A DNA stretch of 54,053 bases from Dirinaria sp. TL-2023a (taxonomy: Eukaryota), in NCBI GenBank assembly GCA_051941275.1, contig JAVEBF010000016.1, forward strand, positions 1 to 54,053. Direction: 5' to 3'. Every line of letters begins with the position of its first letter. Within the stretch, counting starts at the first letter, position 1. This document shows positions 1 through 16,369 of the stretch, piece after piece. A program made the position numbers and the translations under genes. Below the pieces are notes generated by a model, which saw only the letters and a program-made list of their open reading frames with translations, was not told the DNA's origin and did not search any database.

Positions 1-241
1 CTTACTAAGCTCGGGGCGACTACTTAACCGTTTTCACTAAGGCGAACCTTCTATCACACTCTGAGCGCTGAGCTTCGAGACGAAGCTCAGAGAGGGATCC
101 GAATAGTGTGTTACGACCCTGAAAACAAAATCAAGTAGTAAGATAGGCACCAAGTCCTTTGACTTGATTTAGTTAGTCTTTTGGCGCTACCGGGACTTTT
201 ATCATTGGGAAACCTATCTAATCAAGGTTGGGTCTTTGACA
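1..241 (+). mobile_element. 3' part of a miniature LTR retroelement (internal domain 1-108 plus 3' LTR 109-241), cut by the window edge
   Basis: 1-241 is a near-exact reverse complement of ~742-979. LTR 109-241 starts TGTTACGACC and ends CTTTGACA (TG...CA termini) and is preceded by purine-rich GAGAGGGATCCGAATAG. Confidence 0.85.
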
Positions 242-741
242 GATATAAGATTAAATAAAAAGACTGACTCAAAGAATATGACGAGTGAATCTCTGAATCA
301 AATATGAGAAATATATCGAATTTAATTCGAATATACGAAGAGTCTGGGAATATTAAACGTCGACGAATCGTCAAAAGAAAGTCGAATAGTTTCTCTTCTT
401 TCGAAAAGCAAAGCGCGTCAGCAACAAGACGTTCTAAAGAAAGAAGAGCGACAAATACACTGCGACGTAGCACTAAAAATAAATCAGTGAGATGATTATG
501 AATTATTTGCTATTCGAACTATTCTTGCTAAAAGTTTAATTCTCGTCGAAATAATAAGACGAGATCGACTTGATGAATTTCGAAAAGATATCAATAGTAG
601 AAGAGCGTATCTTTATCTTTTTAATCGATACTTTGATTCTTTTACGAGAAGATATTTTCTTCTCGTTCTCGTTCTCTTTCTCTTCATCGCCTCGATTCAC
701 ATCGCTAGTCTCATTAACTCTCTCGTCATCAATTTCATTAT
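242..741. repeat. AT-rich, hypermutated (RIP-like) relic, probably a decayed transposon
   Basis: AT-rich with only three CC/GG dinucleotides by eye in 500 bp (GGG at 346-348, CC at 690-691). The ORFs here are low-complexity, and the segment lies between two LTR-element copies. Confidence 0.6.
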
Positions 742-1200
742 TGTCAAAGACCCAACCTTGATTAGATAGGTTTCCCAATGATAAAAGTCCCGGCAGCGCC
801 AAAAGACTAACTAAACCAAGTCAAGGGACTTGGTGCCTATCTTACTACTTAGGTGTTCCAGGGTCGTAACACTACCCGGGTCCCTTTCTGAGCTTCGTCC
901 CGAAGCTCAGCACTCAGGGTGTGGGTAGGCGGTTCGCCTTAAGTGGAACGGTTAAGTAGTCGCCCCGAGCTTAGATAAGCTCTCAGCCGACAGACCTCGC
1001 CGAAAAACAACCCTTCAAGCGTCCGGGCTGGGATTCGAACTCAGAACCTTGCGACCGTGTTGACTTGGTTTAATGTCAAAGATCCAACCTTGGTTAGATA
1101 GGTTTCCCAATGGTAAAAGTCCCGGCGTGGCCAAAAGACTAACTAAACCAAGTCGGAGACTTGGTGCCTATCTTACTACTTATCTTTCAGGATCGTAACA
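742..1200 (-). mobile_element. Non-autonomous miniature LTR retroelement (TRIM-like): 5' LTR 1200-1074, internal domain 1073-872, 3' LTR 871-742
   Basis: Two ~130-bp direct repeats with TG...CA ends enclose a 202-bp non-coding internal domain. A PBS-like segment at 1060-1072 follows the 5' LTR, and a purine-rich tract (AGAAAGGGACCCGGGTAG on minus) abuts the 3' LTR. No matching TSD seen (ATTAT vs GAGTT). Confidence 0.85.
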
Positions 1201-1211
1201 GAGTTCTGATA

Positions 1212-1651
1212 CTCGTAGTCACCTCCTTTCTTGGTTCATCTACTTTCTTGATAGGATTAGGATTAAACATCTTCGTCTTATCAAAACGTCTTTCTTTATC
1301 AAATAATCTGATACTTCGGACTGACTAATATGCATCGATTTAAGAGATAACTATGAAACATTTCTTTTAAAATGCTCTATCGATATTAATTGAAACTTGA
1401 ATTATATTATACATATAGATAATTATTTCGCGTCTCTCGAAAAGACGATGTTTTGTCGCGATCGACAGTTTCGCAGCGCAATTTCGTATCGCAGATTCTT
1501 CAGATCGATGATATCTCTGACTCTTAAGTTGATGCATTTTAGATAGCAGATTATTTGACGTTGCAAGACGTTGCGGTTGAAGTGAATATTGTAACCCTAA
1601 ACCTATCAAGAAAGTAAGGTAGGTGAACCAAGAAAGGGGGGTGAATACGAG
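1212..1651 (-). mobile_element. Internally deleted Tc1/mariner-superfamily (pogo/Fot1-like) DNA transposon / MITE
   Basis: Imperfect ~55-60 bp TIRs (CTCGTAGTCACCTCCTTTCTTGGTTCATCTAC... at 1212; ...GTAGGTGAACCAAGAAAGGGGGGTGAATACGAG ending at 1651) with TA on both sides (1210-1211, 1652-1653). The minus-strand remnant SEESAIRNCAAKLSIA loosely resembles the N-terminal HTH of fungal pogo transposases. Confidence 0.8.
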
Positions 1652-2441
1652 TATGGAAAATATATTTGAGCTAAGTGAAATCACATTTAAGACGAGCTAC
1701 CAATCGTATCAGGATCATCATGATACTTGATAATCCTTTAGATAGTTCTATAAAAGTATCTTTTATCTTTCTTAGTAATCGGATCATACTACGACACGAG
1801 ACTCCAAGTAACGTAAAGGTTAGCATCTAGCTATTAACAAGAATAGGTAGATAAATTACGCGATAACCCTAAGGAATTTTTGACCATAAGGTAGGTCTGA
1901 GTAAGGTAGGTAGGTAGTGAGGCAAGCGAGAAGGGGTTGAGTTCTGAGTCAAGAACAACCCACAAGCAATAGTAACAAAGAGAGACGTCGAAGGAGAGTT
2001 CCGCAGCTTGACAAAGCTTTCCATCGACAAATTCCCGCACAGAAGACCGCATCGGTATTTGCAAAGTCATTGTTGGTCTGTTCTGAGGCATAAGGACCCC
2101 ATTTGATCTTTTTGAAGGTTGTCTTGCTAGCCAAGCACATATCTTGAGGAATTCTACTCATTACTAGTTGTCGGTCCTTGGCAAGGTCAAATCGTCTCTC
2201 GTCAGCATTATTCCCCTCAACCTACTTTTAGGCCCAGCGGCGTTCCATCGTCGGTGTCTCGACTGATCTAGGGCGGCCCCTAGTTCCCCTTAGAGGCTTT
2301 GCTCTTGCCAATCTAATTTCTGACAACCTTACTTATAACGATCATGGCTTTTTGGGTCGACATCTTCGTCGGCTCCACTCGTGCTCGTTTCGACAACCTA
2401 ACGGCGAGGGTACCTCAACAGCGCTCTCGTTGTCGGCATCA

Positions 2442-3986
2442 ATGGCAGATATTGCCAATGGCATGGCCGTCAAAAGCCCGCCTTCTTCTCTAGTCGAGTC
2501 AGACGATGTAAGTCACCTACTCAGCTCTGACGATCAATTGAGACGGATTGACCAGCTCTAGCGCTCCTTCCAGAGCACAGACGAAATGTAGGCTCTCCTC
2601 TGCTAGCCTTCATAACCGATTGGATCTCACATGGCATAGCGACTTGGACCTAGCATCAATCACCTCAAGTGTACTGGACTACGAGTTTGAGAACGGCCGA
2701 CGATATCATGCCTACAAAGCAGGCTCCTATCCTTTGCCCAACGACGAAGTAATGCTTGACCGTTTTTAGGCCCTTTCAAGGCCCCTACTTCGATGAATCA
2801 GTCGATAGACATACTGTTGCTCGAGCTAATGAAACCCGGTTTGCAGGCGGAAATGGAGCGCATGGACATCAAGCATCATATCTTTATCCTATTGTGCAGC
2901 GGGAATTTACATTTGGCACCTTTGACAAAGCCAGAGAGAATTCTGGATCTTGGTACAGGAACTGGCATTTGGGCCATGGAAATGGCCGACCAGTACCCTG
3001 AATCGACAGTGATTGGAACAGATTTATCTCCTGTGCAACCAACATGGTACCGGCAAATACTCTGCGAAAACTGGTGTCAAGCGGATCATACTGATGCCAT
3101 GGCTTTCTAGGGTGCCGGATAATGTTCGTTTCGAAATCGATGATTTCGAAAGAAATTACTGGTTCTGGCCGGAAAGTTACTTTGATTACATCCATTCTCG
3201 CTTCTTGGTCAGTTCTGTATCGAGCTACCCTGCTCTGATACGAAAAGCATTCAAGTCAGTCTGTATTCCTACCTTAATCTACAAGGTTTTGTACATCTGA
3301 CCGCCAAAAAATTAGACATTGCCGACCGGGCGGCTATTATGAACTACAAGATCTCAACCCTCGATTTTATTCCGATGACAGCACTCTTGAACACGATAGC
3401 AGCCTAAGTTACTGGTCCAAAGTTATTTGTGAAGCGTCAGCAGCGTACCGGCGCCCTGTCCCGCATCACACTGAGTTTACCGCATGGTTCGAAGAGGCTG
3501 GTTTCGAAGACGTGAAACAAATCATTTTAAAGTCGCCCACGAATCCTTGGCCCAAGAGCAAGACCCTCAAAGAGTCAGGTAACTTCCAATTGCTTGCTCA
3601 CCTTGAGGGCTTGGAAGGGATCTCTCTTGGACTGTTGACCAGAGCACTTGAATGGAAACCGGAGGAGGTCAAGATTCTAATGGCCAAAATCAGACCGGAA
3701 TTGAGAGATAAGACGATTCATTCTTATCAGATTCAGTAAGCCGCATCGCTTGAAAACTATTATCGCAGTCTTACTGATCTTCGAGTAGCTTCACTATCTT
3801 CGGTAGAAAACCCAAGGGTATACCATCGCCTCTTGCGACTTCACCTAGACTTTCCCCATCGGCACCTATCGTTGCTCCAAGCATAGCCAAAGGTAACTTT
3901 TTGCTGGTGATGATTTGCAAGCCGTGAACTCACACAATGTAGATGCGGGTCAGAAGTTGGCATCGAGTCACACAACAGCCGATTAA
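2442..3986 (+). CDS. LaeA-like class I SAM-dependent methyltransferase (multi-exon)
   Basis: Spliced frames give SITSSVLDYEFENGRRYHAYKAGSYPLPNDE, ILDLGTGTGIWAMEMADQYP, VIGTDLSPVQP, FDYIHSRFL and PTNPWPK, joined by GT-AG introns (e.g. GTAAGT at 2508). The terminal exons are less certain. Confidence 0.9.
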
Positions 3987-5772: not shown

Positions 5773-8300
5773 GGTTTTACGCTTGGTTTAGATGCAGCTC
5801 CTGAGCGTGGTTGATTTGATACTTTAGGAAAAGGGAGTCGGGGGCTCGACAATGGTAATACAGGGTCGACAAGACCGAGAGCAAAACAGGCGAAGGGTAC
5901 GAGCGTCGAGCCAAGCCAATCAGTAGAGGTACCTAAAGCAAATGTAAAAGTGACGTCGGTGGTCGACACCGCTGATGGTACGTCCGCAATGAACAGTAGA
6001 ACACTACTTTACCTTAGGTATCTTACTTACTACAGTACATTACATATTAATCTGGTTTGATGACCCCTTGCTGTCTCAGTCATGCGCTTGGGAGAGCAGG
6101 CTTTTCTTCCGACTGATAACTTGGCACGCAGACTAGGAGTCTAGGTAATGGACGGACTTAAGATCGTCCTCTACCAAAGCTCATTGGTATCTCGCTCGTG
6201 CAGCTACACAGAACATAACATGACTTACAAAGAGTCGGTATGGTGGTTTTATACCTGCAGTCGAGTACATGCACCTTACATTGGGTCCTTCAAGCATCTT
6301 ATTAAGGATGATCGTACGATCACGTGCATGGCGGGCAAGGTGATGTGTGTAAGGTAGGTACAGTACTTGGGTAAGAGACCAAGGTAAGGTAATCTATATG
6401 TACCTTACATGGTGCTTACATGTAAGATATGATACTTAGATGAGGTCAAGTTACGCTGTATAGATTTTCTTAGTATCTGAGTACCAAAGCTCAATCGGAG
6501 ACCACAGGGACCACTTTTTACACGCTCGCTGCAAGTTGTCTTGCTCGCCTGAGTTTCTACATTACTACGATGATCTCTTCTTGAGGTCTGGCATCACAGT
6601 GTAGGTCTTCCCCAGATTTCGCAGGACCCACTCGGAACCTTTCAACCTGATGATTTGTAAAAACCGCAAAACTAGAGTCTTTGACCTTTCGAGGAATGTA
6701 AATTCCAATGCACACGTCAGTCTGATTAAGAACACTCTGTCGTCAGGTTACCGCCGACTTAGTACTGGTCAAAGACTCTGGTAGCTAACAACTTGTGTCT
6801 GTATAGTGCTCTCTACTTATTCACATGGTATGTTGCATTACCTGATTACCCAGATATTTCTCCAGGAGCGGAGATGATTATGTCGTACATCGTACGCTGG
6901 AAATTACCGACTGAAGCCGTTAGTGGCTTTCGACGATATCAAATGGCTGTGGCTGAGCTCTGTTAAAGCTATTTTCAGCGAGGAGAACTTCGAGCACTTT
7001 TATGCAGATCAAGCCTAACATCTAGCAGTGCATCAGTGAATATTCTATTGCCTATCCTCATCAAGCTTCCAGCTACTATTTTGCATCCTAGACTATCGAG
7101 CGATAGCTATCAGTCCATCACCAATTGAACCTCTGAACCTTGGAGTTAAGCCCCACCGGCGAGGAGCTTGTCGAACATAGGGCAAGAGATTCTAAAGCGT
7201 ACTGTACCCATCGTCATGGTCTCAGAAGGTCTAGACATTGGCTTACAAGATGAATGGCACTGGGCTCCAACGGCATTTTACTGCTAAATGAACGACATGC
7301 CTTCCTGTGGCTGGTCCAAGAAAACCATGCCCACTGACGCACAATGATGCTGGACATCAAATCGCAGCGATCATGAGAATCGTGCATGAGCTGACTGATG
7401 AAGTTTCTTCAAAGGGCTTTCAACCCGATCCGAGCACTTGAGCCATAAATATCCAAGAGCGTTCGACGAGAAGCTCCGAATCCGTGGAAATCTTAGTACG
7501 GTAAGCGGTCTTTCCTCCAATCAACAATCATTTGCAGGATGAATGCTTAGATGACGAGTCTGATTGAAGAACTTCCCATGTAGACGAATCTATTTTACCA
7601 TTCATGCATTTCTGACAAACCTCTGAAATCTGTATTATGCGACCATCTTGTTTGTACTCGTACCCTTACTGACTGGAGTCGGTTAGATTTCTTCGGACTC
7701 TTCAACACGGGATTGCCAAAGTTTGTAAGTCGTGGAAATTCCGTTCTCTGGGATCGCTGTTCCACGTGATGATCTGTATTTTCAACGACAAGCATATGTC
7801 CGAGCCGGTTTTACCACCACTGAAGACGAGAATATTCTGACTGACACAAGGCTAAGAGTCTATGCCAAAAACCGGTTTCTATTTTGCAATAATTACTGAC
7901 AATTCCACTCTGTTTCCTAGTTATTTGGGTGTTGCGAGAATTGTACGTGACGCTCTTCCTATTGGCTTGTCCTCCTACGGTTTCCCTACGCATGATGATC
8001 CATTCTACAATCTCACGACGGTCGGCATAGCTACCAATCAGCTTTGATGAGATTTGCTCTGACCGGGCATACAATCTGAATTGCTATACTTCACGGTATA
8101 GCACGTTGCGGAGCTGCGGAAACTGTCTGAAAATTTCGATATGACGTCATACTAACCCTCACCTTCGCTACAGGCCTGATTGATAATTGATCTTAAGTGC
8201 TGCCCTTCGTATACATCAACGGCATTACCGACCATATCGCAACCGATCTTTCACAGTCCCAGCAAGAACGTTCTCTGAATGAAACCTTGCATTACCCACA

Positions 8301-15765: not shown

Positions 15766-16369
15766 CTTGAAGTTTAAGCGACCAAATAGAGACTAGTCGG
15801 TTGAAAATTAGTCTTGCTTCTCTGAAGTTCGATGCACGGTTCAAAGGTGGCTAAGAGAGCTATCAGAAGAGCGGAGGTCGATGCTCCCGTAAAGCTAGTC
15901 CGCAGCAACAGAGTACAGTATACAAGTCTTCTAGGACTGGTGCCAGCTAGATACTATCATCATAGAATGCGCAATAAACAAGGAAATGAAAATGGCCGTC
16001 GTACCTATCATCGATGGATTTTTGAGCGTCCTTAACATCCGAGTTTGGAGTGATAGAAGGCTCGAGAAACAAAGTCCAGGGAATAGCGGTCCGAAGAGTC
16101 TCGCCTATACCTTCCTTAAGCAGGAATCAGGATTCCTGAAGACACTACGAGACTACCTAAGTACCTTAAGGTTGGATGATCGATTTCGTAAGGTATACAG
16201 TACTCGATTTTGCGAAATAACCATAGCTAGTTCGATCTGGGGTATCTACAAAGACAAGCTACAGCTTGTTAGTGGTTTCCCTGTTGTCCGTGAAATCCGT
16301 CCAGCATTAATGCCCAACAATGATCTGTACAAGACTAAGTATATACACCATATGCGCAACCTGCCAATA

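Follow-up and report, generated by a model that had tools for sequence, protein, structure and literature searches.

A probable miniature LTR element with a putative primer-binding site complementary to its own LTR in DNA of a probable lichen mycobiont

Introduction

How would reverse transcription be primed in an LTR element that encodes nothing and whose putative primer-binding site is complementary to a segment of its own LTR? The question arises at positions 742-1200 of a 54,053-nt stretch of DNA (the window, by which we mean the whole stretch analysed). A first-pass annotation, made from the letters alone, had proposed a miniature LTR element there, about 460 bp long and non-coding, that primes itself in the manner of Tf1 and lives as a parasite of a self-priming chromovirus. 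In Tf1, the RNA's first 11 bases pair with the primer site, and cleavage by RNase H falls between bases 11 and 12 (PMC7175516). Tj1 is predicted to self-prime like Tf1 (PMC4600332). Tf1 is the element in which self-priming has been demonstrated; for other elements of fungi, plants and vertebrates it is a prediction. We combined repeat searches, LTR alignments, chance controls and RNA fold predictions with comparisons to further copies in the window and in a related lichen fungus, and weighed self-priming against other explanations of the locus.

Genomic setting

We read the window as nuclear DNA of a filamentous ascomycete, probably a lichen mycobiont or else a fungus dwelling in lichens. Four C/D-box snoRNAs of Aspergillus- and yeast-type families score above the Rfam gathering score (Table 1), and Pfam identifies housekeeping genes among the long open frames, including RRP12, Sec6, a thiolase and fructose-1,6-bisphosphatase. 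The GC content is 39.5% in positions 1-2000, against 45–53% in the rest of the window, and these first 2 kb consist mostly of repeats.

The surroundings hold other features. At a distance of 8 bp, the right side of the LTR element is followed by a foldback or MITE-like element (1209-1654) with imperfect terminal inverted repeats of ~135 nt (1209-1346/1521-1654, 106 of 146 aligned columns identical) and no obvious target-site duplication; its left end has an 18-nt inverted match at 2677-2694. The gene at 1976-3000 is covered by RNA-library contigs of a relative (see below), whose spliced joints omit 2508-2561 and 2749-2846 (both GT..AG), with further skips of 2201-2339 and 2585-2639. Pfam returned no family for two open frames tested, 2884-3255 (-) and 3278-3739 (+).

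Architecture of the element

The element occupies 459 bp of the minus strand (742-1200) and is composed of LTR A, a core and LTR B. On direct reading, both LTRs have TGT..ACA ends. The repeat search returned direct repeats at 738-822/1070-1154 (85 nt, 92%) and 827-851/1158-1182 (25 nt, 100%), and the alignment of LTR A with LTR B has 5 gap columns and, outside these, 92.9% identity. These repeats and ends bear out the architecture given in the first-pass annotation, with one boundary shifted by 1 base. The non-coding character holds as well: stop-to-stop frames that overlap the element reach 50 aa at most. The core (872-1073) is rich in local hairpins, for example a 10-bp stem at 888-910.

The candidate polypurine tract is weak, because the purine run at 881-889 does not abut the LTR; of the 6 nt that do adjoin it (872-877), 5 are purines on the element strand. 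Orientation on the minus strand follows from two observations: the complementarity described below exists only on that strand, and the sole purine run near an LTR edge (881-889) fits there. The 5-bp target-site duplication sought for such an element is absent from 742-1200, the single complete copy examined, which is flanked by ATTAT on the left and GAGTT on the right. Assuming an inversion between the two inverted copies of the window likewise restored no target-site duplication.

Table 1. Coordinates of the features discussed, in positions of the window
Feature	Positions	Strand	Size or detail	Basis
Second copy, inverted, cut by window start	1-241	+	3' part of core 1-108; LTR C 109-241	Repeat search, alignment
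3' LTR (LTR A)	742-871	-	130 nt	Direct repeats, alignment, direct reading
Non-coding internal domain	872-1073	-	202 nt	Direct reading, repeat search, ORF scan
5' LTR (LTR B)	1074-1200	-	127 nt	Direct repeats, three-LTR alignment
Candidate polypurine tract	881-889	-	9-nt purine run, 9 nt upstream of 3' LTR	Direct reading
Putative primer-binding site	1060-1072	-	13 nt, one base (1073) past 5' LTR	Inverted-repeat search, chance controls
Putative self-primer in 5' LTR	1144-1154	-	Element positions 47-57; also 3' arm of LTR hairpin	11-nt exact complement
Primer-segment copy in 3' LTR	812-824	-		13-nt exact complement to primer site
LTR B hairpin	1147-1165	-	8 bp; arms 1147-1154 and 1158-1165; 3-nt loop	-9.9 kcal/mol
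LTR A hairpin	815-834	-	8 bp; arms 815-822 and 827-834; 4-nt loop	-10.5 kcal/mol
snoRNA cluster	Afu_300 6867-6958; Afu_513 7243-7339; snR75 7534-7617	+		Rfam
snoRNA Afu_190	15862-15965	-		Rfam, above gathering score

Putative primer site and LTR hairpin

A site following the 5' LTR and unlike the usual tRNA-type sequence had been reported at plus 1060-1072, and our analysis confirms it at one base from the LTR edge. It contains no TGG and is therefore not of the tRNA 3'-end type. Its reported complements in the two LTRs were recovered at the same positions and lengths, the 13-nt pair at 100%. Exact complements to the 20 nt past the 5' LTR extend to at most 11 nt within LTR B, 13 nt within LTR A and 8 nt within LTR C, the LTR of the second copy; the opposite orientation yields no more than 7 nt. 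Of 20 000 shuffles of the LTR, 6 gave a complement of 11 nt or more and none gave 13 nt or more. Blocks from other parts of the window with the geometry of LTR and primer site (131 nt plus the following 20 nt; n = 2758) served as controls and never reached 11 nt; their maximum of 10 nt occurred once. The complementarity between LTR and primer site is far beyond chance and lies exactly at the position expected of a primer site.

The complementary LTR segment doubles as the 3' arm of a hairpin, as the first-pass annotation had noticed, and does so in both LTR A and LTR B, with arms ACCAAGTC/GACTTGGT at 815-822/827-834 and 1147-1154/1158-1165. In LTR C, a single transition leaves a weaker hairpin of 6 bp with -6.4 kcal/mol. 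The 5' arm of the hairpin repeats the sequence of the primer site's 8-nt core, so the element contains three related segments.

Predicted RNA folds

In the predicted fold of an RNA that starts at plus 1154 (element position 47), nt 1-13 pair with the primer site, one of the 13 pairs being G.U, and the fold-back encloses about 80 nt of U5. With this start, pairing between the 5' end and the primer site belonged to the minimum-energy fold for every 3' end tried, and the mean pair probability with the site was 0.99–1.00 for the 5' end versus 0.00–0.01 for the 3' LTR copy. In an RNA carrying the whole 5' LTR, the hairpin forms instead, and the centroid fold pairs the site with the 3' LTR copy. The fold of the whole element has a z-score of -2.54. 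The first-pass annotation had suggested that a start in the hairpin loop would free the primer at the 5' end while the 3' copy stays sequestered in the hairpin; by these probabilities the suggestion is thermodynamically coherent in silico for an assumed start at plus 1154, and the modelled switch depends wholly on that start.

The same folds could be taken one step further, to an LTR with a built-in decoy of its own primer-binding site: a start in the loop would free the 5' primer, and the hairpin would lock the 3' copy. We consider this doubtful. If true, the decoy would work as an RNA device for distinguishing the two R copies, perhaps one general to Tf1/sushi-type elements, in an element small enough for such a device to be dissected.

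Second copy in the window

The truncated copy at the window start is 88.5% identical to the complete copy over 244 columns. Its terminal base 241 corresponds to 742, and the flanking DNA is unrelated. Both copies lie within 1.2 kb of each other. The 500-bp spacer between these inverted copies (242-741) is AT-rich, with short open frames only and a TTCTCG microsatellite at 660-682; a contig of the relative is alike at 657-691 only and diverges on either side.

LTR C and LTR A are 96.1% identical, and all five of their differences are C>T or G>A toward LTR C. One transition falls inside the primer segment of LTR C and leaves the 8-nt complement. In the core part of the comparison of 1-241 with 742-985, 10 of 11 differences are transitions, and 8 of 11 are C>T or G>A toward the truncated copy. 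The differences of the truncated copy thus form a RIP-like pattern, which would be consistent with the low GC of the first 2 kb. Identity between LTR A and LTR B (92.9%) is lower than between LTR A and LTR C, and the complete copy may therefore be recombinant or converted and not the product of one clean insertion. BLAST of the element against the remaining 52 kb of the window gave only chance-level matches of at most 23 nt.

Copies in a related lichen fungus

The only public runs containing words of window positions 1-3000 were four RNA runs (one lichen-metagenome sample; 5–7% of the sampled words). Contigs from these libraries are 90–99% alike to the gene neighbouring the element, none reaching 99%, and so derive from a relative and not from the same strain. 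They represent assembled sequence that carries neither start nor strand and is not proof of transcription, and the comparison has no cover of 1-600, 700-900 and 1201-1900.

The element occurs in at least three different contexts among these contigs. Record 1 (188 nt) matches 1074-1145 and then continues past the LTR edge at 1074 into unrelated flanking DNA, and so represents either a solo LTR or the outer end of an element. Record 15 (419 nt) matches 1131-1200, has 133 unmatched nt and then matches 955-1105, that is, an LTR end, a partly diverged core and an LTR start in the order of the window; its word depth is 33.8, and that of the contigs of the neighbouring gene is 18–30. Its listed substitutions are at 1008, 1026, 1031 and 1034, and its listed indels at 976, 990, 994, 1003 and 1029 in the core and at 1080, 1082 and 1091 in the LTR start. 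No substitution is listed from 1035 to about 1075 and no indel from 1030 to 1079, and the primer site and first LTR bases are therefore apparently unchanged, in a difference table that seems to leave out substitutions closer than about 30 nt to piece ends. Records 2 and 9, with a loose end before 1165, carry an LTR variant that differs at 2 of the 11 primer positions. Only 6+3 nt of this variant would pair with the site of record 15, and the two possibly belong to different copies.

The occurrence in several distinct contigs of another species suggests that the element is dispersed across genomes. Of the dispersal that the first-pass annotation named as a check, the second copy in the window and the several contigs of the relative have been found, and the other 52 kb of the window holds none. 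Its expectation that the pairing would be kept among copies would be in line with the primer site of record 15, where no change is listed, and is contradicted by LTR C, where 8 nt are left, and by the LTR variant of the relative, with its 2 of 11 changed positions.

Searches for a partner element

Pfam detected no gag, reverse transcriptase or integrase in 17 of the 59 window frames of at least 120 aa, 11 of which matched housekeeping families. In metagenome contigs, a degenerate pattern of the LTR hairpin had 0 matches. An exact 20-mer across the junction of primer site and LTR matched twice (L001, L002), in unrelated DNA with no LTR context; about 2 chance matches would be expected by a rough estimate. 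Prokaryote genome contigs gave 0 matches to the element patterns. In viral contigs, a 22-mer had one match (L003) that is unrelated to the element and lies in what we take to be a phage promoter, and three further patterns had 0 matches. The spurious 50-aa frame, which runs across primer, U5 and primer site, had no candidate among proteins of 27–88 residues. Altogether, the metagenome, prokaryote-genome and viral collections contributed neither an autonomous partner nor a further copy.

Weighing the alternatives

The locus need not be a retroelement. A 332-bp unit duplicated 1.4 times, as a tandem duplication or short satellite, and recopied nearby in inverted orientation would have the same outline, since LTR-core-LTR is geometrically equal to 1.38 tandem units, and the complementarity would then be the palindromic content of the unit itself. 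Such an origin would suit the missing target-site duplication and the closeness of both copies, which share 1.2 kb at a GC-poor and repeat-rich end of the window beside a foldback element. It does not account for the discrete, canonical TGT..ACA ends, for the reuse of the same end in different flanks (742, 241 and record 1) or for a complement located exactly where a primer site belongs; moreover, several distinct contigs of another species carry the element, and Tandem Repeats Finder reports no array. We consider a tandem unit quite improbable. A miniature LTR retroelement primed in some other way, for instance from within a tRNA like fungal Copia elements and Helenus, is unlikely too, if slightly less so. 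Most fungal Helenus TRIMs have sites complementary to tRNA anticodon loops and not to tRNA 3' ends (PMC10886601). The complementarity could in that case have another RNA function, for example in circularising the genome, in packaging or in dimerisation, or could arise as a side effect of the LTR hairpin, whose 5' arm has the sequence of the 8-nt core of the site. That the complementarity is imperfect in LTR C and also in an LTR variant of the relative points the same way. Against this, the complement of 13 nt exceeds the 8-bp hairpin and starts one base from the LTR edge, and self-priming is the predicted rule for those Ty3/gypsy elements of filamentous ascomycetes that the consulted sources name.

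The core also contains a stretch at about plus 1017-1045 (-) that, in our own reading, resembles a tRNA's T arm plus the 3' strand of its acceptor. Nine nt after it comes a five-T run (1003-1007), as in the 3' half of a tRNA gene with its terminator; the region concerned is 1003-1055. Just upstream of the tRNA-like stretch stands GGTTC, given as the conserved core of box B (PMC10886601). The element could on these grounds be derived from a small RNA and driven by polymerase III, as a SINE or a Helenus-like TRIMp3 whose promoter is this tRNA-like piece. However, ARAGORN finds no tRNA in the window, the Rfam models of tRNA, 5S and hammerhead have no match at E up to 10, whether in 1-1700 or in 985-1110 alone, an A-rich tail is absent, and the tRNA-like stretch is the most divergent part of record 15 (3 substitutions and a 2-nt deletion in 1026-1034). 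A polymerase III origin is therefore very improbable in our judgement.

Proposed mechanism and significance

We conclude that the element is, with good confidence, a decayed TRIM-like retroelement. That it is, beyond this, a TRIM-like parasite of a self-priming chromovirus, primed in the Tf1 style, is our main reading, to which we assign a probability of roughly 55%; its chromovirus part leans on the literature on fungal self-primers. Several observations count against it: the absence of a target-site duplication, the 92.9% identity of LTR A and LTR B, the weak polypurine tract, a U3 of ~46 nt, the change in LTR C, the variant in the relative and the failure of the scanned frames and collections to yield an autonomous partner. 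The copy at 742-1200 is old and probably dead.

Because the element encodes nothing, Gag, reverse transcriptase/RNase H and integrase must be supplied by an autonomous LTR element. The helper would most likely be a Tf1/sushi-type chromovirus, a group that includes the predicted fungal self-primers. We infer the transcript start, the cleavage, the helper and mobility itself, and envisage the following course. Transcription would begin within the hairpin loop of the LTR or immediately past it, around plus 1154-1157, leaving a U3 of only about 46 nt. The 5' end of the RNA would fold over about 80 nt of R-U5 and pair with the primer site one base past the 5' LTR, through 11 nt in this copy and 13–15 nt with the LTR A version. 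The helper's RNase H would cut where the duplex ends, releasing a 3' OH that would prime minus-strand synthesis as in Tf1. At the 3' end of the RNA, the primer segment would be locked in a local hairpin by the upstream arm, which has the sequence of the primer-site core.

If active, a 459-bp element with cis signals alone (LTR ends, primer, primer site and U5 fold) would represent a minimal RNA for self-priming, and self-priming chromoviruses would, like tRNA-primed ones, support miniature parasites. For annotation, such elements of ascomycete and lichen genomes would escape LTR finders that require a primer site of the tRNA type. The practical importance is modest.

Comparison with known systems

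The element resembles Tf1-type elements in that the site past the 5' LTR complements an LTR segment and not a tRNA 3' end (11 nt in Tf1, 11–13 nt here) and in that the predicted fold-back closes over U5. It differs from them in scale and content: Tf1-type elements are autonomous Ty3/gypsy elements of the 5-kb class with gag-pol, whereas this one comprises 459 non-coding bp with LTRs of 127–130 nt. In Tf1 the primer is the exact 5' end of the RNA and its cleavage has been demonstrated; here both are deduced. A hairpin able to mask the 3' copy of the primer is present here and was not found in the descriptions of Tf1-type elements consulted.

Size, short terminal direct repeats, a non-coding core, solo ends and multiple copies are shared with plant and animal TRIMs, including the bivalve TRIM (PMC6934838, PMC10886601). 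The TRIMs described there have tRNA-type primer sites, or none that can be assigned (bivalve TRIM), whereas the present site is self-complementary; unlike TRIMs, this copy also has no target-site duplication. The TRIMp3 elements Helenus, Ajax and Cassandra, whose LTR carries a polymerase III promoter of small-RNA origin, are, like the element, miniature and non-autonomous (PMC10886601). Helenus generates 5-bp duplications and was found in fungi, namely in Pucciniales (rusts) and some Agaricomycetes but not in Ascomycota (PMC10886601). Its LTR holds a tRNA-like sequence and is not complementary to the primer site (PMC10886601), whereas here the LTR is complementary and matches no small-RNA model. 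With no tRNA by ARAGORN and no Rfam match at E up to 10, the element is not of the Helenus/Cassandra type, nor is it a retrozyme: no hammerhead or other ribozyme family was detected in 1-1700 (Rfam, E up to 10). In Umbilicaria pustulata, a lichen-forming fungus, the pipeline results cited list one TRIM consensus with 11 copies (PMC8773270), which shares with the element the TRIM class label.

A preprint on transposable elements of Peltigerales makes no mention of TRIM, LARD, non-autonomous elements or self-priming, and the full-text literature searched contained no self-primed TRIM, Repbase and subscription journals being outside its reach. Self-priming is the predicted norm of ascomycete chromoviruses, and a miniature derivative that uses it is for that reason expected and not surprising. 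TRIMs in plants, animals and fungi are known, as is the self-priming of Tf1; what would be new, by the literature searched, is a putative self-priming site in a miniature LTR element.
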